Assembly: GCA_947625345.1 (NCBI GenBank)
Contig: CANQNX010000002.1
Coordinates: forward strand, 12,459-76,458
Source of the DNA: Candidatus Gastranaerophilales bacterium
GTDB lineage: Bacteria > Cyanobacteriota > Vampirovibrionia > Gastranaerophilales > Gastranaerophilaceae
Length of the DNA stretch: 64,000 nucleotides
Direction of reading: 5' to 3'
Shown here: piece by piece, positions 32,754 through 41,176 of the stretch
Layout: each line of letters begins with the position of its first letter
Position numbering within the stretch: position 1 is the first letter of the stretch
The notes under the pieces: generated by a model
The model's database searches: none
Told to the model about the DNA's origin: nothing
What the model saw: the letters and a program-made list of their open reading frames with translations, nothing else
Made by a program: the position numbers and the translations under genes

Positions 32754-33200
32754 ATGATTATAGATGTTTTAGCCAATAGTGATAAATATGTAAAATTAAA
32801 TTCCGACTTTAAAAAAGTTTTTGATTATTTAAAAAATCATGATTTAAAGAACATGCAATCAGGGAAGCATGAAATAAACGGGGATGAAATATTTTTCAAT
32901 TTAAATGAATACGAAACTAAACCCGCACAAAAACTTGAAGCACATAAAAAATATATTGATATTCAGGTTGTTATTTCGGGTGAAGAATATATGGGATATA
33001 CAAATATAGAGAATACAACAATATCGGAAGAATATAACAGTGAAAAAGATGTTATGTTTTTAAATGGAAATGTGGACAAAGTAAAAGCAGATACTAAATC
33101 TTTTTTAATTTTTTATCCTGAAGATGCTCACATGCCCGCTTTATGTACAGATACTCCTAAAAAAGTTAAAAAAGCCATTTTTAAAATATTAATAAAATAA
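32754..33200 (+). CDS. YhcH/YjgK/YiaL (DUF386) family protein
   Basis: MIIDVLANSDKYVKL..., GKHEINGDEIFFNLNEYETK, LEAHKKYIDIQVVISGEE and FLIFYPEDAHMP match the family pattern. The ATG at 32754 follows TGGAG. Confidence 0.75.
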   Translation: MIIDVLANSDKYVKLNSDFKKVFDYLKNHDLKNMQSGKHEINGDEIFFNLNEYETKPAQKLEAHKKYIDIQVVISGEEYMGYTNIENTTISEEYNSEKDVMFLNGNVDKVKADTKSFLIFYPEDAHMPALCTDTPKKVKKAIFKILIK

Positions 33201-33307
33201 ATATATTAAGTATTAATTTTTAACAAATGTAAAGGAAACACTTCAAAAAAATATAAATATAGTGTAAAATGTAAAAAAATGTGTGAAGGTAAATAAGGTA
33301 AAAAAAT

Positions 33308-33430
33308 ATGAATATAAATATTTTTAGTTTTACAGAACAACTTTTAGACCTTTTAACAACTTGGTTCTCTTTCACTTCAAAAGAATGGGCATGGTGCCCC
33401 GTTAAAGTTAACAATCGTATAGATAAATAG
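33308..33430 (+). CDS. Candidate trp operon leader peptide (40 aa, 3 Trp codons)
   Basis: ATG 33308 to TAG 33430 translates to MNINIFSFTEQLLDLLTTWFSFTSKEWAWCPVKVNNRIDK. TGG codons occur at 33362, 33386 and 33392. AAGG ends 9 nt upstream of the ATG. The ORF overlaps the alternative hairpins that precede trpE. It is below the 60-aa cutoff of the ORF track. Confidence 0.55.
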   Translation: MNINIFSFTEQLLDLLTTWFSFTSKEWAWCPVKVNNRIDK

Positions 33431-33476
33431 TTATTTTACGATTAGTTAACGGTTGGGGCAAAAGAATAATTGCCCC
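33387..33476 (+). promoter_or_regulatory. Attenuator: four G/C-rich segments forming mutually exclusive hairpins
   Basis: The four segments are GGGCA (33387-91), TGCCCC (33395-400), GGGGCA (33455-60) and TGCCCC (33471-76). Pairing 2:3 is extended by TTAACAATCGTA (33408-19) with TACGATTAGTTAA (33437-49). Pairing 3:4 forms the terminator. Confidence 0.55.
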
Positions 33477-33495
33477 GTTTTGTGTTGGGTTTTTC
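33455..33495 (+). terminator. Intrinsic terminator of the trp leader
   Basis: GGGGCA-AAAGAATAAT-TGCCCC followed by GTTTTGTGTTGGGTTTTTC. It lies about 55-70 nt upstream of the trpE ATG. Confidence 0.6.
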
Positions 33496-33547
33496 TTTAC
33501 AAAAAAACTCATTCGTTTTACTGTTAAATAAGAAAGAGAGCTTTATA

Positions 33548-35014
33548 ATGTTTCAGCCGGAATATACAAAAATAGAAGAATTAGCAAAAGAATATAAGTT
33601 TATACCCGTTTCTACGGAAATGTTTTCTGATATAACAACTCCGATTCAGGTATTGAGAAAACTCAAAGAGGCAGACTCTCATTGCTTTTTGTTAGAAAGC
33701 GTTGAAAAAGCTGAAAAAATAGGTAGATATTCATTTTTAGGATTTGAACCTTTAATGGAAATAACCTGCAGAAATAATAATCTTATAATAAAAGAACAAG
33801 ATAAAAGGTTTGAAATTTCAACATCAACTCCGCAAAATTACATAAAAGAAATAATCAATGAACATAAAAGTCCTAAACTCGAATATCTTCCGTCCTTTAC
33901 CGGAGGTTTGGTCGGTTATTTTTCTTATGATTTTATAAAATATTTTGAACCCAAATTAAATTTAGATGCTAAAGATGATGAAAATTTTAAAGATGTCGAC
34001 TTAATGTTATTTGATAAGGTAATAGCATTTGATAACGTTAAAAATAAAATTATTTTAATAGTAAATATAAAAACCGACAATTTAAAAGAAAATTATGAAA
34101 AAGCAATAAAAGAATTAAACAGATTAAAAAATATAATTGAAAACGGAAAAGCATATAAAATAAAAGAAGGAAAACTAAAGTCGGAATTCAGGTCTTTATT
34201 TAATAAAGAAGAATTTTGCACTATGGTTGAAAAAGCGAAGCACTACATAAAAGAAGGTGACATATTCCAAGTTGTTTTATCAAATCGATTTGAAGCTGAT
34301 TATGAAGGGGATTTATTAAATACATACAGAACGTTAAGGACAATAAATCCGTCACCATATATGTTTTACTTTGGCAGCAATGATTTGGAAATAGCAGGTG
34401 CATCACCTGAAACGCTTGTAAAATTGGAGAACGGAAAGTTATACACTTTCCCCTTAGCAGGCACGAGAAAACGGGGAAATAGTTTAAAAGAAGATAAAGA
34501 GCTTGAAAAAGAACTTTTAAATGATGAAAAAGAATTAGCCGAGCATAATATGCTTGTAGACTTAGGCAGAAATGACATAGGTAAAATATCAAAATTCGGT
34601 TCCGTTGAAGTTGAAAAGTATATGTCAATTGAACGTTTTTCACATGTAATGCATATAGGTTCAACAGTAACGGGGGAAATAAGAGATGATTTGGGGCAGT
34701 TAGATGCAATAGGTTCAATTCTGCCGGCAGGAACACTTTCTGGTGCACCAAAAATAAGAGCTTGTGAAATTATAAATGAACTTGAAAACAATAAAAGGGG
34801 AATATATGGAGGTGCCATAGGCTATATTGATTTTACGGGGAATTTAGATACCTGTATTGCAATCAGAATAGCATTTAAAAAGAATAATAAAGTATTTGTC
34901 AGGGTCGGAGCAGGAATCGTATATGACAGTATAGGTGAAAATGAGTATAAAGAGTGTTTAAATAAATCAAAGGCAATAATGAATGCGCTTAAATTATCAC
35001 AGGAGGTTCTATGA
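33548..35014 (+). CDS. trpE: Anthranilate synthase component I
   Basis: Motifs FLLESVEKAEKIGRYSFLGFEP, PSPYMFYF, GTLSGAPKIRA, RGIYGGAIGY, GAGIVYDS. The ATG at 33548 (MFQPEY) follows AAAGAGAG; the listed upstream extension covers the terminator. Confidence 0.95.
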   Translation: MFQPEYTKIEELAKEYKFIPVSTEMFSDITTPIQVLRKLKEADSHCFLLESVEKAEKIGRYSFLGFEPLMEITCRNNNLIIKEQDKRFEISTSTPQNYIKEIINEHKSPKLEYLPSFTGGLVGYFSYDFIKYFEPKLNLDAKDDENFKDVDLMLFDKVIAFDNVKNKIILIVNIKTDNLKENYEKAIKELNRLKNIIENGKAYKIKEGKLKSEFRSLFNKEEFCTMVEKAKHYIKEGDIFQVVLSNRFEADYEGDLLNTYRTLRTINPSPYMFYFGSNDLEIAGASPETLVKLENGKLYTFPLAGTRKRGNSLKEDKELEKELLNDEKELAEHNMLVDLGRNDIGKISKFGSVEVEKYMSIERFSHVMHIGSTVTGEIRDDLGQLDAIGSILPAGTLSGAPKIRACEIINELENNKRGIYGGAIGYIDFTGNLDTCIAIRIAFKKNNKVFVRVGAGIVYDSIGENEYKECLNKSKAIMNALKLSQEVL

Positions 35015-35586
35015 TACTGCTTATAGACAATTATGACAGTTTTTCATACAACTTATATCAGTATATAGGAGAAATAAATTCCGATATAAAGGTTATAAGA
35101 AACAATGAAATGACTCCCGATGAAATAGAAAAACTAAATCCCGACTATATAGTAATATCCCCCGGACCGGGCAAACCAAAAGATGCAGGGTATTGTGAAG
35201 ACATAATAAAAAAATTTGCACCGAAAAAACCAATTTTGGGAATATGTTTAGGACATCAGGCAATATGCGAAGTATACGGTGCAACAATAACGTACGCAGA
35301 AAAGATAATGCACGGGAAAACTTCTGAAATTCAAATTGATAATACCGCTGATATTTTCAAAAATATTCCGGAAAGAATTAATGTAGCAAGATACCATTCA
35401 CTATCAGCGAAACCAAATACAATTCCCGACACTCTGAAAGTAATTGCAAAAACGGATGATAATGTTATTATGGCGGTTAAACACAGGGACTACAATGTAT
35501 ACGGGCTTCAATTCCATCCCGAATCTATTCTTACTCAAAACGGTAAAACCATAATTAAAAACTTTATAGAAACGGGGAAAAAATGA
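35011..35586 (+). CDS. trpG: Anthranilate synthase component II (glutamine amidotransferase)
   Basis: MILLIDNYDSFSYNLYQY, ISPGPGKP, ILGICLGHQAI, GLQFHPES. Confidence 0.93.
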   Translation: MILLIDNYDSFSYNLYQYIGEINSDIKVIRNNEMTPDEIEKLNPDYIVISPGPGKPKDAGYCEDIIKKFAPKKPILGICLGHQAICEVYGATITYAEKIMHGKTSEIQIDNTADIFKNIPERINVARYHSLSAKPNTIPDTLKVIAKTDDNVIMAVKHRDYNVYGLQFHPESILTQNGKTIIKNFIETGKK

Positions 35587-36599
35587 TAACCGAGGCACTA
35601 AAGAAATTAACACAAAATATCGATTTGGATTATGACACTGCAAAAGCAGTAATGAATGAAATAACGAGAGGAGAAGTAAGCGATATACAAATCGCTGCAT
35701 TTTTAACCGCACTCAGAATGAAGGGTGAAACAACAGATGAAATAACTGCCGCAGCTCAAGTAATGAAAGAAAAATGTATAAAAACCGACCTTGGTAAAAT
35801 TGATACCTTAGATATAGTAGGTACCGGCGGAGATATGAGCAATACGTTTAATATTTCAACTGCAACAGCATTTGTGGTTGCCTCGGGAAATGTTCCCGTA
35901 GCAAAACACGGAAATAGGGCATTAACGAGTAAATCAGGTTCAATAGATGTTCTTGAAGCATTGGGAATTAACGTAAATAAAACAATTGAAGAAGAAAAAG
36001 AAATATTTAATAAGTTAAATTTATGTTTTATGTTTGCACAAAACCATCATCCGGCAATGAAATATGCCGCAAATGTCAGAAGAGAATTAAAGTTCAGAAC
36101 ATTATTCAATATATTAGGTCCGTTAACAAACCCTGCCGGTGCATCTTCTCAGCTGTTCGGAGTTTTTGATAAATCACTTGTAAATATACTTTGCCGTGTC
36201 ATTTCAAATTTAGGTGTAAAAAATGTACTTGTCATTCATGGTAAAGACGGGATTGATGAAGCTACAATTACCGATGAAACAATAATTTCAGAAGGAAGAA
36301 ACGGAATAATAAAAGATTACACAATAAAACCCGAGGATTTCGGAATAAAAAGATGTTTGAAAAAAGACCTTGAAGGCGGTACAAAAGAAGATAATGCACA
36401 AATTATAAAAAATATTTTTAACGGAAAAGAAAAAGGTGCCAAAAAAGATATTATCTTATTAAACAGCGCTCTGTCTTTTTATACATACAATAAAACAAAA
36501 ACAATAGCAGAAGGAATAAAACTATCGGAGAATCTGATTGAATCGGGTGAAGTTTTAAATAAACTCAATAACTATATAAAAATTTCCAACGAGGTTTAA
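35583..36599 (+). CDS. trpD: Anthranilate phosphoribosyltransferase
   Basis: DIVGTGGDMSNTFNISTA, VAKHGNRA, NILGPLTNPA. Confidence 0.93.
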   Translation: MITEALKKLTQNIDLDYDTAKAVMNEITRGEVSDIQIAAFLTALRMKGETTDEITAAAQVMKEKCIKTDLGKIDTLDIVGTGGDMSNTFNISTATAFVVASGNVPVAKHGNRALTSKSGSIDVLEALGINVNKTIEEEKEIFNKLNLCFMFAQNHHPAMKYAANVRRELKFRTLFNILGPLTNPAGASSQLFGVFDKSLVNILCRVISNLGVKNVLVIHGKDGIDEATITDETIISEGRNGIIKDYTIKPEDFGIKRCLKKDLEGGTKEDNAQIIKNIFNGKEKGAKKDIILLNSALSFYTYNKTKTIAEGIKLSENLIESGEVLNKLNNYIKISNEV

Positions 36600-37385
36600 A
36601 TGAATATTCTTGAACAAATAAAAGATAAAACAAAAATAAGGGTAGAAGCATTAAAAAAACACAATAACAAAGCCGAATTATTTAACATGGCTCAAAAATT
36701 GAAGGATAACTCCTTTAAATTTGAAAAAGCACTAAAAAAACCTGAAATATCATTTATTTGCGAAATAAAAAAAGCCTCTCCTTCAAAAGGCATTATTGCG
36801 AATGATTTTCCTTATCTCAAAATAGCTAAGGAATACGAAGAAGCACAGGCAGATGCAATTTCAATTTTAACCGAGCCGGACTTTTTTATGGGCAATATTG
36901 AATATTTAAAAGAAATTTCAAATACCGTTAATACACCGTTATTAAGAAAAGATTTTATAATAGATGAAATTCAAATATATGAATCAAAATTTATCGGAGC
37001 GGATGCAATTTTATTAATATGCTCAATATTAGACAATAATCAATTGGCAGAATATATAACCATTGCAGAATCAATAGGATTATCATGTTTAGTGGAAGCC
37101 CATGATGAAAAAGAAATAGAAAAAGCAATGAAAGCCGATGCAAAAATTATAGGCGTAAATAATCGGGATTTAAAAACTTTTAAAGTCGATATTAGTAACA
37201 GTATTAATTTAAGGAAATATGTACCCGAGAACATACTGTTTGTATCTGAAAGCGGTATAAAAACCCGTGAACAAATAATTGAACTTGAACAAAATAATGT
37301 TAATGCCGTATTAATCGGTGAAACTTTTATGCGTTCGGAAGAAAAGAAAAAAGAACTTTTAATGTTAAAAGGAAAAGAAGAATGA
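36600..37385 (+). CDS. trpC: Indole-3-glycerol phosphate synthase
   Basis: FICEIKKASPSKG, ISILTEPDFF, LRKDFIIDEIQIYES, VEAHDE, IGVNNRDL, SESGI. Confidence 0.93.
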   Translation: MNILEQIKDKTKIRVEALKKHNNKAELFNMAQKLKDNSFKFEKALKKPEISFICEIKKASPSKGIIANDFPYLKIAKEYEEAQADAISILTEPDFFMGNIEYLKEISNTVNTPLLRKDFIIDEIQIYESKFIGADAILLICSILDNNQLAEYITIAESIGLSCLVEAHDEKEIEKAMKADAKIIGVNNRDLKTFKVDISNSINLRKYVPENILFVSESGIKTREQIIELEQNNVNAVLIGETFMRSEEKKKELLMLKGKEE

Positions 37386-37987
37386 AAATAAAAATATGCG
37401 GACTGATGACATTAAAAGATATAGATTATGTAAATCAAGCCGAGCCTGATTATGTCGGGTTTATATTTGCAAAAGAGAGCAGAAGAAGAATAAGTATAAA
37501 TCAGGCAAAAGAGATGAAAAATCATTTAAATAAAAACATTAAAAGCGTGGGAGTTTTTATAAATCCTGATATAAGTGAAATATCAGAGTGTATTGAAAAT
37601 AGAATAACCGATTTAATTCAACTTCACGGAGATGAAGATAACCAATTTATTGATGAAATAAAGAAATTAGCAGATATAGAAATAATAAAAGCAATAAAAG
37701 CAGATGAGAATATAAAAGAGAATTCAAGTAAAACAAATGCCGACTATATACTTATAGATAATATTAAGCCCGGTTGCGGGAAAGTATTTGACTGGGCATT
37801 AATCCCAAAATTAAATAAAAAAATATTTTTAGCCGGAGGATTAAATTCCGAAAACATAATTCAGGCAATACAAATTGTTAACCCATATTGCGTGGATATA
37901 AATTCCGGAGTTGAAACAGACGGCAAAAAAGATAAAAATAAAATAGCGGAAATAGTAAAAAAAATAAAAGGAAATAAAAATGACTGA
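37382..37987 (+). CDS. trpF: Phosphoribosylanthranilate isomerase
   Basis: [40 protein letters not shown]. Confidence 0.9.
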
Positions 37988-39164
37988 AACAAAATTCGGA
38001 ATATTCGGAGGTCAATATATACCTGAAATTTTAATGACTGAAATAAAAAATTTAGAAGAAGCATATAAAAAATACAAGAATGATGAAAAATTTCAAAATG
38101 AATTAAATAAATTACTGAAAGACTATGCGGGACGTCCTTCCTTACTCTATTTTGCAAAAAATATGACAGAGGACTTAAAAGGAGCAAAGATATATCTGAA
38201 AAGAGAAGATTTAAATCACACCGGTTCTCATAAAATTAATAATGTATTAGGTCAGGCACTTTTAGCGAAATATATGGGCAAGAAGAGGATAATAGCTGAA
38301 ACGGGAGCAGGTCAGCACGGAGTTGCGACAGCTACCGCTGCAGCATTATTAGGTTTAGAGTGCGAAATATTTATGGGAAAAGAAGATACGATAAGACAAG
38401 CCCTAAACGTATACAGAATGGAGTTATTAGGTGCAAAAGTTAATGCCGTAACAACAGGAACTCAAGTATTAAAAGATGCTGTGAATGAAGCCATGAGAGA
38501 ATGGTCAAAGAGAACAGAAGATACGCTGTACGTACTTGGTTCAGTTATGGGTCCTCACCCGTTTCCGACAATAGTAAGAGATTTTCAAAGTGTAATAAGT
38601 AAAGAAGCGAGAGAACAAATACTTGAAGCCGAGGGCAAGCTACCGAGTGCAGTAATAGCTTGCGTTGGCGGAGGAAGCAATTCGATGGGTATGTTTTACA
38701 ATTTTATAAATGATAAAGATGTAAAATTAATCGGTTGCGAGGCGGCAGGATTAGGAATTGACACGGATAAACACGCAGCAAGTATTACAAAAGGCAGAAT
38801 AGGAATATTTCACGGGATGAAATCAATATTTTGTCAGGATGAAAACGGTCAAATATCACCTGTATACTCAATATCCGCAGGTCTTGATTATCCCGGAATA
38901 GGACCTGAACATGCATATCTTAATTCTATAAAAAGAGCACAATATATCCCGATAACCGACGAAGAAGCAGTTGAAGCTTTCGAATATCTTTCACGAACGG
39001 AAGGAATAATACCTGCCATAGAAAGTGCTCATGCCGTAGCATACGCAAAAAAAATAGCACCGAAAATGAATAAAGATGAAATAATCATAATATGTTTATC
39101 AGGCAGAGGGGATAAAGACGTTGCTTCAATAGCAAAATACAGAGGGAGAATAATAAATGAGTAA
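37980..39164 (+). CDS. trpB: Tryptophan synthase beta chain
   Basis: [23 protein letters not shown] (the PLP Lys), [31 protein letters not shown]. Confidence 0.97.
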
Positions 39165-39927
39165 CATATATAAAGCATTTGAAAAAGGTAAAGCGTTTAT
39201 CGCCTTTTTAACGGCAGGCGATCCCGATATAGAAACAACAAAAAATACAATATTTAAAGCTGAAGAAGCAGGTGCGGATTTAATAGAAATAGGCATCCCG
39301 TTTTCAGATCCCATAGCGGAAGGGGAAGTTATACAAAATGCAAATATAAGAGCTTTAAAATCGGGCACAAATGTACATAAAATATTTGATATGGTTGAAG
39401 ACGTAAGGAAAAAATCACAAATCCCGCTTGTATTTTTGACATATATAAATCCCATTTTAAACTATGGCTATGAAGAGTTCTTTAAAAAATGCAATCAAGT
39501 TGGGATAGACGGAATAATAATACCCGACTTACCGTATGAAGAAAAAGACGAATTAAAAGAATTCACACAAAAATACAATATTGATTTAATTTCATTAATA
39601 GCCCCCACGTCTGACGAAAGAATAAAAGAAATAGCAAAAGATGCAAAAGGATTTGTATATATAGTATCTTCAATGGGTGTTACGGGAGTAAGAAAAGAAA
39701 TAACAACAGATTTAGAATCAATAGTAAAATTAGTAAGAAAAACAACTTCAACCCCTTCTGCCATAGGGTTTGGAATTAATACAACAGAGCAGGCAAATCG
39801 TTTTTCAAAAATGTCCGACGGTGTAATAGTCGGCAGCGCAATCGTAAAAATTATGGCAAAATACGGAAAAGATTCACCAAAATATGTCTATGATTATGTA
39901 AAAGAAATGAAAGATGCAATAAGATAA
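39157..39927 (+). CDS. trpA: Tryptophan synthase alpha chain
   Basis: [47 protein letters not shown]. Confidence 0.95.
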
Positions 39928-39931
39928 TGTC

Positions 39932-41176
39932 ATGAACAAAATAACAAATATTTTCAGAGCACTAAAATACCGCAATTTCAGACTGTTCTTTCCGGGACTT
40001 ATAATTTCACAAATAGGTATCTGGCTGCAAAATATTGCAATAAGCTGGCTTGTATACGAAATGACAAATTCCGCTTTATTAATGGGAATAATAATGTTTT
40101 TTAATGCAATACCTTTATTTGCCGTTTCACCTTTTGCCGGAGTTATAATAGATAAATTCAATAAACACAAGCTTTTAATGACAATACAAATATTATTTGC
40201 ACTTCAGGCTTTTTTAATAAGCATAATAACACTGACGGGACATATAAAAATAATTTATATAATTTTATTGGGCGCAATGTTGAATATAATAGCGTCTATA
40301 GATATTCCCTTAAGACAATCTACCTTTGTTAATTTGGTAGATGATAAAAAAGATTTAAGCAACGCTATATCACTCAACTCCACATGCTTTAATATAGCAA
40401 GACTTTTAGGCCCGATATTTGCGGGGATATTAATAGCAAAAACAAGTGTGGGTATTTGTTTTTTAATTAATTTTTTATGCTTTCTGCCTTCAATATTCTT
40501 AGTAAAAGCAATGAAAATAACAGATATTAAAGATGAGCATGTTAAAAATGAAAGTATACTTGAAGGATTAAAAGAAGGAATAGATTATGCTTTTCACGAT
40601 AATTATATATTTATATTGTTAGTGTATTTAGCCGTATTTAGCTTTTTGGGAATGATTTATCCGATGCTTATGCCGATATACACAAAAGATGTTTTAGCAC
40701 AAAATGCGGACATTTTGGGCAGATTAATGGGTATGGCGGGAATCGGAGCGTTAATTTCATCATTAATACTATCATATAAAACAACCATCAGAGGACTATT
40801 GGGGTTTATGTGCAGTGCTTTTATATTAATGGGAGCAGGATTTATAATATTAAGCTTAACAACGAATCTGAATACTGCCTTAATAGGAATGTTAATTATA
40901 GGTTTCGGAACAACAGGAGGACTGACACCTGCAAATACATTATTACAAACATTCGTAGATGATGATAAAAGAGGCAGGGTAATGAGCTTGCATGCAATAT
41001 GTTATGTAGGGCCGCTATCTGTAAGCAATTTTTTCGCAGGAACACTAACACATGCAATCGGGATTTCAAAAGCCTTTGGTATTATCGGAATATTAATCGT
41101 AATATGCGCTTTATACTTTTACAGAAAAATTAAACTAATACAAACCAATAGGAACTTATATAGCAAATTATGCTAA
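39932..41176 (+). CDS. MFS transporter (12-TM; EntS/MFS_3-like by eye)
   Basis: A 414-aa polytopic protein. The N-terminus is ALKYRNFRLFFPGLIISQIGIWLQNIAISWLVY, with loop motifs GVIIDKFNKHKL and RGRVMSL. It starts 4 nt after the trpA stop. Confidence 0.8.
   Translation: MNKITNIFRALKYRNFRLFFPGLIISQIGIWLQNIAISWLVYEMTNSALLMGIIMFFNAIPLFAVSPFAGVIIDKFNKHKLLMTIQILFALQAFLISIITLTGHIKIIYIILLGAMLNIIASIDIPLRQSTFVNLVDDKKDLSNAISLNSTCFNIARLLGPIFAGILIAKTSVGICFLINFLCFLPSIFLVKAMKITDIKDEHVKNESILEGLKEGIDYAFHDNYIFILLVYLAVFSFLGMIYPMLMPIYTKDVLAQNADILGRLMGMAGIGALISSLILSYKTTIRGLLGFMCSAFILMGAGFIILSLTTNLNTALIGMLIIGFGTTGGLTPANTLLQTFVDDDKRGRVMSLHAICYVGPLSVSNFFAGTLTHAIGISKAFGIIGILIVICALYFYRKIKLIQTNRNLYSKLC

Follow-up and report, generated by a model that had tools for sequence, protein, structure and literature searches.

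In a 64,000-nucleotide stretch of the genome of a Candidatus Gastranaerophilales bacterium (contig CANQNX010000002.1; hereafter the window), the tryptophan operon trpEGDCFBA is preceded by a leader that encloses a 40-codon open reading frame (ORF) with three Trp codons. With moderate confidence, this leader is interpreted as a ribosome-mediated, Trp-responsive attenuator in which the codon for Trp19 (W19) would be the sensor, acting mainly at the level of translation, and to which a transcription terminator would have been added in the lineage of the window. The translational level is family-wide (eight of nine loci), and the terminator level is a lineage-specific addition (two of nine). DNA and RNA comparisons cover these nine loci, which are the window and eight relatives, and peptide comparisons cover 20 sequences. 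The leader elements and the operon all lie on the + strand of the window.

The leader peptide and its conservation

The ORF runs from 33308 to 33430 and encodes MNINIFSFTEQLLDLLTTWFSFTSKEWAWCPVKVNNRIDK*, with TGG codons at 33362 (W19), 33386 (W27) and 33392 (W29). An AAGG Shine-Dalgarno (SD) motif (33295-33298) precedes its ATG at a spacing of 9 nt, and all of these features lie exactly where an earlier analysis of the letters of this DNA (the sequence-only reading) had placed them. An SD motif is found before the ORF in nine of nine homologous leaders, and its motif type (AAGG/AGGA/GGAG) is the one used by most genes in the window. The same reading had remarked that Trp codons are rare in this region, and the counts agree: the window, with a G+C content of 31%, has 75 Trp codons among 19,534 in 55 ORFs (0.38%), and trpEGDCFBA contains two among 2,129. 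The probability of at least three Trp codons in 40 is 5e-4 by codon usage and 4e-3 by base composition, and the leader ORF is the one member of a set of 117 ATG-initiated ORFs of 30-60 amino acids in the window that has so many.

Upstream DNA was fetched for 12 close relatives of TrpE. A homologous ORF of 38-43 codons precedes trpE in L001, L084, L085, L086, L090, L091, L092 and L093, which are Gastranaerophilales loci with TrpE 82-86% identical to that of the window, and it is absent from L087, L088, L089, L094 and L002 (TrpE 73-81% identical). The gene upstream of the leader varies by locus, being a DUF386 gene, a triose-phosphate isomerase gene, an amidase gene or others. When 1.84 billion representative proteins were searched exhaustively with phmmer, 11 further peptide homologs emerged and nothing else convincing. 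A word-indexed protein search with the leader peptide found no match besides the peptide itself, and metagenome scans found none, whether they used the peptide alignment or the DNA pattern CATTCGTTTTACTGTN{4,20}AGAAAGAGAG. Because homologs are confined to the close TrpE relatives and these 11 peptides, the leader family is, as judged from the sequences, real yet phylogenetically narrow, belonging to one Gastranaerophilales subclade.

Among the 20 peptides, positions M1, W19, A28, W29, C30 and P31 are near-invariant: W19, W29 and C30 are each retained in 19, P31 in 18 and A28 in 17. W27 is kept in 13 and replaced by Phe, Leu or Met in seven, and the W-A-W pair occurs in six of the nine DNA homologs. 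At least two Trp residues are present in every peptide, and the interval from W19 to P31 is free of indels, its spacing being fixed at 12 residues. Individual departures are a Gly at W19 in P0122, a Phe at W29 in P0130 and an Arg at Pro31 in L093 (957-1203) and P0133. The latter two may be decaying or rewired leaders; L093 also lacks the complementarity to the trpE SD that is described below, where it carries GAAAGUGAG.

Selection was gauged by the ratio of nonsynonymous to synonymous differences (pN/pS), using the pooled Nei-Gojobori method on codons 10-32 of the nine DNA sequences. The ratio is 0.51 in the frame of the ORF, and the two other frames give 1.08 and 1.54. Constraint resides in two blocks, codons 19-22 (W-[LF]-S-[FVC]; 0.20) and codons 28-32 (A-W-C-P-V; 0.07, with pS 0.81 and pN 0.06), and codons 10-18 (0.94) and 23-27 (0.95) are unconstrained. 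Such in-frame selection argues that the ORF is translated and that the peptide sequence matters in part, beyond its Trp codons; by this evidence the ORF is genuine.

The codons for W27-A28-W29-C30-P31 (33386-33400) contain two short RNA segments, segment 1 (33387-33391) and segment 2 (33395-33400). RNA pairing was considered as the cause of the A-W-C-P conservation and rejected: variation in the motif is limited to third codon positions, with all four Ala codons, both Cys codons and three Pro codons in use, and the motif persists without the hairpin of segments 1 and 2 and without segments 3 and 4. The conservation of A-W-C-P hints at a pausing or arrest peptide. W19 and W29 are 10 codons apart, exactly one ribosome footprint, and a further idea is that a disome geometry may be involved.

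Predicted pairing of the W19 block with the trpE ribosome-binding site

The leader RNA (33280-33548) folds better than its dinucleotide shuffles (z = -5.3; 0/200). The best-conserved element of the family, which the sequence-only reading had overlooked, is a block of four codons starting with W19, UGG UUC UCU UUC (UGGUUCUCUUUC; 33362-33373), paired with the SD region of trpE. This block is proposed to contain both the sensor codon and the anti-SD, and the trpE SD block GAAAGAGAGCUU (33532-33543) provides the 3′ strand of the helix. In the window 33363-33373 pairs with 33532-33542; across the family the helix has 9-12 bp, with strands about 160 nt apart, and the block can be generalized as UGG-YUN-UCY-UUY, complementary to the trpE SD block GAAAGAGAGC. 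The helix is present in the minimum free-energy structure of eight of the nine independently folded loci, where it forms the long-range closing helix. When the SD was matched against about 260 windows per leader, the W19 block ranked first or second as its duplex partner in eight of nine loci, at -9.5 to -21.7 kcal/mol. In the alignment, 89.8% of cells pair, compared with 50-66% in slid registers, and the probability that the SD of the window is paired with the W19 block is 0.98-1.0.

Codon usage in the block follows the same pattern. Leu20 is always encoded by CUY (25% in genome usage) and Ser21 always by UCY (31%), and CUC serves for Leu20 in four of six cases, though it is a rare codon (3.9% in genome usage). 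Codon choice here is, judging from the aligned leaders, limited to pyrimidines that preserve pairing with the trpE SD. On the other strand, the atypical SD AGAAAGAGAG is identical in eight of the nine leader-bearing loci, with GAAAGUGAG in L093. Leaderless relatives have GGAG at this position and not GAAAGAGAG, and most window genes have AAGG or GGAG. The whole-leader MAFFT alignment is unreliable between hairpins H1 and H3; of it, only the anti-SD and SD columns, which have no gaps, were used.

Downstream of the W19 block is hairpin H1 (33407-33450), the 5′ arm of which consists of codons 34-37 and the apical part of which holds the stop codon of the ORF (33428-33430). In the window its arms are 33407-33419 and 33437-33450, with a free energy of -13.1 kcal/mol alone and of -27.6 kcal/mol when extended by the pairing of segments 2 and 3 (33393-33462) into the putative antiterminator. 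H1 is found in nine of nine loci, with L090 and L092 using different sequence for it. In the arm alignment 93.4% of cells pair, as against 25-53% in slid registers; in six of 13 pairs both partners have changed, and none of 500 shuffles reaches that value. H1 covaries across the family in this alignment, which was built by hand with left arms placed by codon and the right arms of L090 and L092 placed by position and pairing, and which is to that extent biased toward structure.

Segments 1 (GGGCA) and 2 (TGCCCC) of the window are joined by segments 3 (GGGGCA; 33455-33460) and 4 (TGCCCC; 33471-33476), and these permit a 1:2 hairpin (-7.0 kcal/mol), the extended 2:3 hairpin and a 3:4 hairpin (-12.6 kcal/mol). 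The segments, the H1 arms and a U-rich tail all have the coordinates given in the sequence-only reading, and the three hairpins that it drew, including the stop codon in the apical part of the extended one, do fold. The 3:4 stem (33454-33477) and its tail, GUUUUGUGUUGGGUUUUUC, constitute a predicted intrinsic terminator (33454-33495), the letters after segment 4 being GTTTTGTGTTGGGTTTTTC (33477-33495). A terminator scan marks 33454-33477 with TTTTGTGTTG on the + strand, finding two sites in 33100-33600 compared with 0.1 expected from shuffles.

The distribution of these segments is uneven. The GC-rich 3:4 terminator exists only in the window and in L001, with a weaker stem in the latter, and is absent from the other seven loci. 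L001 and L090 have lost both segment 1 and its 1:2 hairpin. This hairpin is restricted to leaders that have W27; it was rejected as a conserved anti-antiterminator and is an apparent by-product of the peptide motif. The comparison of trpE upstream regions proposed by the sequence-only reading thus has a divided outcome, with the ORF, W19, W29 and a covarying H1 conserved, and W27 and segments 1, 3 and 4 not.

Between the terminator region and the trpE SD resides an AU-rich hairpin, H3 (33486-33511), which is present in all nine loci with differing stem sequences (e.g., GGUAUUUU/AAAAUAUC in L091). It is followed by CAUUCGUUUUAC, kept in nine of nine loci, and the element CAUUCGUUUUACUGU (33510-33524) is nearly invariant, its conservation exceeding what the base of H3 needs. 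H3 with its UCGUUUUAC tail was considered as the regulated terminator of the family and dropped as a switch, because H3 is predicted to fold at any ribosome position (eight of nine loci); it is kept as a structural element. Together, H3 and CAUUCGUUUUACUGU are a candidate structural spacer of the junction or a candidate weak terminator.

The SD region of the leader ORF itself also has a partner within the ORF. It pairs with codons 14-18 (GCAAAAGG with CCUUUUUGC, -12.6 to -14.7 kcal/mol), which are its best partner in five of nine loci (L084, L085, L086, L092 and L093); L091 has a compensatory variant (GCGAAAAGG with CCUUUUCGC), and the pairing is weak in the window (33285-33290 with 33347-33352). 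Considered with the trpE pairing, this would place two adjacent anti-SD blocks within the leader ORF.

Upstream of the ORF, a consensus scan recovered the promoter-like sequence TTCAAA-N17-TAAAAT (33242-33270; 9 of 12 positions matched), which the sequence-only reading had also singled out. Its -10 element, (GTG/GTT)TAAAAT, is kept in nine of nine loci, and conservation of the -35 element is loose; judging from this site, transcription would start at about 33277-33279. Just upstream of the -35 element is a conserved block, TTTTTAACAAATGTAAA ... AAACACT (33217-33242), which is retained in L001, L084-L086 and L091-L093 (seven of the eight homologous loci) despite different upstream genes. TTTTTAACAAATGTAAA is an imperfect inverted repeat (TTTAACA/TGTAAA). 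The block is a candidate operator or upstream promoter (UP) element, and its membership in the attenuator is uncertain; if it is either of these, it would add a protein-mediated layer to trp control.

Ribosome position and competing explanations

The effect of a translating ribosome was modeled by constrained folding with a 30-nt footprint (P site -14 to +15), on window transcripts that start near 33278 and extend either to the U-tract (33486) or through the trpE start (33575). In the shorter transcript, the 2:3 antiterminator and the 3:4 terminator are mutually exclusive and ribosome position decides between them, as had been supposed from the letters. In the ribosome-free transcript their probabilities are 0.80 and 0.20, respectively; W19 in the A site gives 0.43 and 0.56, K25 in the A site, which masks segment 1 alone, gives 0.31 and 0.67, and a ribosome at W27, at W29, with Pro31 in the P site or at the stop codon gives 0 and 0.97-0.99. 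L001 shows the same behavior at a weaker terminator. In the longer transcript, the probability of the anti-SD:SD helix is 0.98 without a ribosome, 0 with the ribosome at W19, 0.11 at W27 and again 0.98 at W29, Pro31 or the stop codon. The anti-SD begins with the UGG of W19, which would lie within the footprint of a ribosome stalled there. Masking at W19 raises the predicted SD accessibility in the window, and masking at W19 or W27 raises it clearly in L086, L092 and L091 and slightly in L001 and L085. Thus, as thermodynamic predictions only, a stall at W19 would unmask the SD and allow the antiterminator, and a stall at W27 or W29 would give the OFF structures.

These observations suggest the following sequence of events. 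Transcription would start near 33278, and a ribosome would translate the 40-codon leader, in which the decisive sensor would be the UGG codon of W19 (33362) that opens the pyrimidine block paired with the trpE ribosome-binding site (RBS), GAAAGAGAGCU(U). If charged tRNA-Trp is scarce, the ribosome would stall at W19 and cover the anti-SD, freeing the trpE RBS; a stall at this point would leave segment 2 and H1 intact, such that the antiterminator (2:3 plus H1) could form and the operon would be both transcribed and translated. If Trp is ample, the ribosome would translate through segment 2 and into H1 until it reaches the stop codon there, the antiterminator would be lost and the 3:4 terminator would form, and, after the ribosome has passed, the anti-SD would re-pair with the trpE RBS in those transcripts that read through. 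The ORF, its conservation, the coding selection, the complementarity, the covariation of H1 and the structures at each ribosome position were computed; from them we infer that the ribosome stalls, in which direction regulation runs and how much each of the two levels contributes.

Several points weigh against this interpretation. A ribosome at W19 leaves the antiterminator and terminator near 50/50, and a mask at W19 or W27 gives no rise in SD accessibility in L084, L090 and L093; in L085, too, a W19 mask leaves it almost unchanged. The anti-SD:SD helix shows no double compensatory changes, because its SD strand hardly varies; the ORF strand varies between C and U opposite G, such that the alignment argues for the helix through conserved complementarity only. 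The helix is also weak in the full-length ensembles of L001, L090 and L093. A single sensor leaves W29 and A-W-C-P unexplained, despite their being conserved as well as W19, and a stall at W29 predicts OFF although W29 is conserved like W19. One homologue, P0122, is without W19. Finally, the nine loci are close relatives (TrpE 82-86% identical), so the conservation among them has limited weight.

The conservation that a single sensor does not explain would be accounted for if the leader encoded a regulatory pausing or arrest peptide, which is the main rival reading, though unlikely overall, and which may combine with codon sensing at W19. W19-[LF]-S-F would sit at the constriction of the exit tunnel with A-W-C-P at the peptidyl-transferase center, and the ribosome would halt on segment 2 once Pro31 occupies either the P or the A site, either intrinsically or, as in TnaC, when triggered by free L-Trp, such that an abundance of Trp would bring about termination and RBS sequestration. 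The two amino acid-level blocks fit this idea, the second having saturated synonymous sites, and the linker and N-terminus vary freely; so do the Pro31 codon inside segment 2, where a ribosome yields the terminator at 0.99 and the anti-SD:SD helix at 0.98, and the conservation of A-W-C-P, for which a classical attenuator offers no explanation. In TnaC the critical residues are W12, D16, I19 and P24, and the fixed 12-residue spacing from W19 to P31 equals that from W12 to P24 (PMC10941005). The alignment program hhalign sets W19FSFTSK against W12FNIDNK of TnaC.

The resemblance does not extend to membership in the TnaC family. No TnaC family (Pfam Tna_leader, PF08053; NCBIfam tnaC, TIGR02616) or any other Pfam or NCBIfam family matches the leader peptides at E <= 10, in searches that detect Escherichia coli TnaC at E 3.7e-20 and 1.1e-11, and the hhalign probability is 1.9%. 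The equivalents of W12 and P24 are kept in 19 and 18 of the 20 peptides, and their spacing in all 20, but those of D16 and I19 are not kept: position 23 is D, N, E, T, G, K or S, and position 26 is mostly E with a few Q, D, K and V, and never I. With profiles, hhalign and these residues all failing, membership in the TnaC family was rejected. Individual homologs that lack Pro31 (L093, P0133), W19 (P0122) or W29 (P0130) also speak against an arrest peptide, and the conservation of the first block is accounted for by RNA pairing as well. Moreover, an arrest is not needed, because the OFF structures form anyway after the ribosome has passed.

Conceivably, though with a still slimmer chance, the leader peptide could be a dual sensor, in which arrest at A-W-C-Pro31 on segment 2 by free L-Trp would lock the operon OFF and W19 would sense tRNA-Trp charging and turn it ON. 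If so, one 40-codon ORF would read both free Trp and charged tRNA-Trp, applying a TnaC-like principle with inverted sign.

The sequence-only reading had favored the logic of a classical trpL-type attenuator with four segments, whereby a stall at W27-A-W29 masks segment 1, segments 2 and 3 pair and the 3:4 terminator is prevented. The window does contain the four segments, the exclusive 2:3 and 3:4 pairings and a terminator recognized by the scan, and W-A-W is found in the six homologs noted above. However, W27 and W29 are just 1-9 nt away from segment 2, and a ribosome that has either in its A site covers this segment, which abolishes 2:3 pairing and raises the terminator to 0.99, opposite to what a starvation signal requires; masking segment 1 alone still favors the terminator (0.67 to 0.31). 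Conservation is also lacking for W27 (13 of 20) and for segment 1 with its 1:2 hairpin (absent from L001 and L090), segments 3 and 4 are missing from seven of nine loci that retain the ORF, H1 and the SD pairing, and the Rfam Trp_leader model is not matched. A trpL-type mechanism is consequently improbable. The general idea of a ribosome-mediated attenuator survives, upheld by the conserved leader and by the folding at W19, and the role given to W-A-W and segment 1 falls. Both reservations attached to the original proposal were well placed: a ribosome at W27 or W29 does mask segment 2 (2:3 probability 0), and a stall at W19 fits better, this codon being kept in 19 of 20 peptides, with the SD freed and the antiterminator allowed.

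Even less probable is a leader RNA that binds a protein, a tRNA or a ligand (resembling a T-box, a TRAP target or a riboswitch, or with a repressor bound at the upstream block), with the ORF as a by-product. The complex, conserved multi-hairpin fold, the conserved CAUUCGUUUUAC element, the inverted repeat-like block at 33217-33242 and the T-boxes upstream of related trpE genes in other phyla would all be in keeping with such an RNA. Yet, at E <= 10, Rfam models gave only chance snoRNA and rimP noise on 32900-33800, with no T-box, Trp_leader or other leader family; this was the check for a competing RNA class that had been suggested with the original proposal. At the gathering threshold no leader family was found in the whole window (one tRNA besides noise), and neither T-box nor Trp_leader was found in L001, L084-L086 and L090. 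The same search does detect T-boxes upstream of trpE in L014 (Blautia) and L006 (Elusimicrobium). In-frame selection, and the retention in 9-20 homologs of the SD, the ATG, at least two Trp codons and a stop codon within the hairpin, indicate that the ORF is used. Most doubtful of all is that the ORF encodes a trans-acting peptide or an ordinary small protein whose place before trpE is incidental or secondary. In its favor, part of the peptide is conserved at the amino acid level and a trans-acting trp leader peptide, peTrpL, is known (PMC7298713). Against it, neutral evolution is seen in the linker and in the first 18 residues, the ORF sits in a conserved RNA structure with the trpE RBS, it is always next to trpE and is absent along with the trpE leader in L087, L088, L089 and L094, and it matches no Pfam, NCBIfam or other family.

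Known attenuators, distribution and significance

The favored W19-based attenuator can be compared with several known systems. Like trpL of E. coli and other enterobacteria (RF00513), it has a short translated leader with Trp codons ahead of trpE, and in the window the choice between terminator and antiterminator is predicted to follow ribosome position, with a distal ribosome favoring termination. It differs from trpL in having no sequence or structure homology to the Rfam Trp_leader, in its length (40 codons compared with 14), and in the dispersion of the window's Trp codons (19, 27 and 29), which are in tandem in trpL; the first alone is correctly placed, and the near-tandem W27 and W29 lie on segment 2 rather than segment 1. 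In addition, the ribosome-free truncated window transcript favors the antiterminator, the terminator is absent from seven of nine family members, and there is the anti-SD:SD helix besides.

There is also a likeness in principle to the translational attenuators of ermC/ermB, cat and cmlA, and to secM-secA and mifM-yidC2, in which an RBS sequestered by a segment within or beside the leader ORF is unmasked by a stalled ribosome, a step that is predicted here by folding only. In those systems the trigger is an antibiotic or a secretion defect and the stem-loop is local; here the presumed trigger is starvation for the cognate aminoacyl-tRNA at a Trp codon, and the paired strands, about 160 nt apart in the window, close a junction of several hairpins. 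The peptides are unrelated. With TnaC the leader shares the conserved Trp 12 residues before a Pro, two blocks with a variable linker, the pattern W-F-x-[IF]-[DN]-x-K and a link to Trp metabolism. In TnaC the Pro is followed by a stop codon (or by Lys codons), whereas Pro31 is followed by nine sense codons in the window and by 8-12 in homologs, and the leader precedes the biosynthetic trpE rather than the catabolic tnaA, such that the logic would need to be inverted; nor does anything point to a rut site or to a part played by Rho.

The trp leader of Bacillus subtilis combines a TRAP-dependent terminator with a hairpin that sequesters the trpE SD. Two-level control of trpE within one leader, by terminator choice and SD hiding, would be common to both systems, but regular (G/U)AG triplet repeats are not seen by eye in the present leader, and its sensor would be the translating ribosome. 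In other gut lineages (L014 and L006), Trp T-boxes are found where this leader lies, ahead of closely related trpE genes; in the leader-bearing loci a translated ORF stands there instead, with no T-box match in the window or in those that were scanned.

The operon that would be regulated, trpE-G-D-C-F-B-A (33548-39927), consists of overlapping or abutting genes, and Pfam matches (Chorismate_bind, GATase, Glycos_transf_3, IGPS, PRAI, PALP and Trp_syntA) confirm the identity that the sequence-only reading had assigned to it. It is flanked upstream by a DUF386 gene and followed by a gene for an MFS_3-family transporter (39932-41176), which starts 5 nt past trpA; co-transcription with the trp operon is possible.

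TrpE of the window (33548-35014) is 84% identical to that of the Candidatus Gastranaerophilales metagenome-assembled genome L001, and named database homologs at 83-84% identity are also Gastranaerophilales. Its identity to TrpE of gut Clostridia, Elusimicrobia and the archaeon Methanobrevibacter is 63-73%, and this similarity across gut microbes suggests lateral spread of the operon. Lineages with related trpE genes carry different leaders: L014 and L006 have a T-box, and trpE of L002 and L089 is preceded by a tRNA gene. In L090 (trpE at 1201), the leader stands ahead of trpE-trpG alone, followed by a clpB-like gene, which argues that the leader moves with trpE and not with the whole operon. 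L091 (890-1102) has an insertion of more than 200 nt in the H1 loop, which may be a small mobile element and which leaves both arms, the ORF and the SD pairing intact; 213 nt of it were removed before alignment.

Ribosome-dependent attenuators are textbook systems that, to our knowledge, have been characterized almost only in Proteobacteria, Actinobacteria and a few Firmicutes, and no report of one for Melainabacteria/Gastranaerophilales was found in the searchable literature. The principle is a known one, and what appears new is its implementation: its presence in this phylum, a long leader that belongs to no Rfam or Pfam family, a sensor codon within the anti-SD, an optional terminator and the peptide motif. 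The RBS of trpE is apparently hidden by codons that include the sensor Trp codon itself, with a terminator bolted on in one lineage, and the leader family may offer a snapshot of attenuators gaining or exchanging layers. A-W-C-P is a candidate for a new pausing or arrest peptide tied to amino acid supply. For annotation, the 40-amino-acid ORF would be labeled a trp leader peptide, and the expression of trp genes in these uncultured gut bacteria is predicted to respond to the charging of tRNA-Trp.

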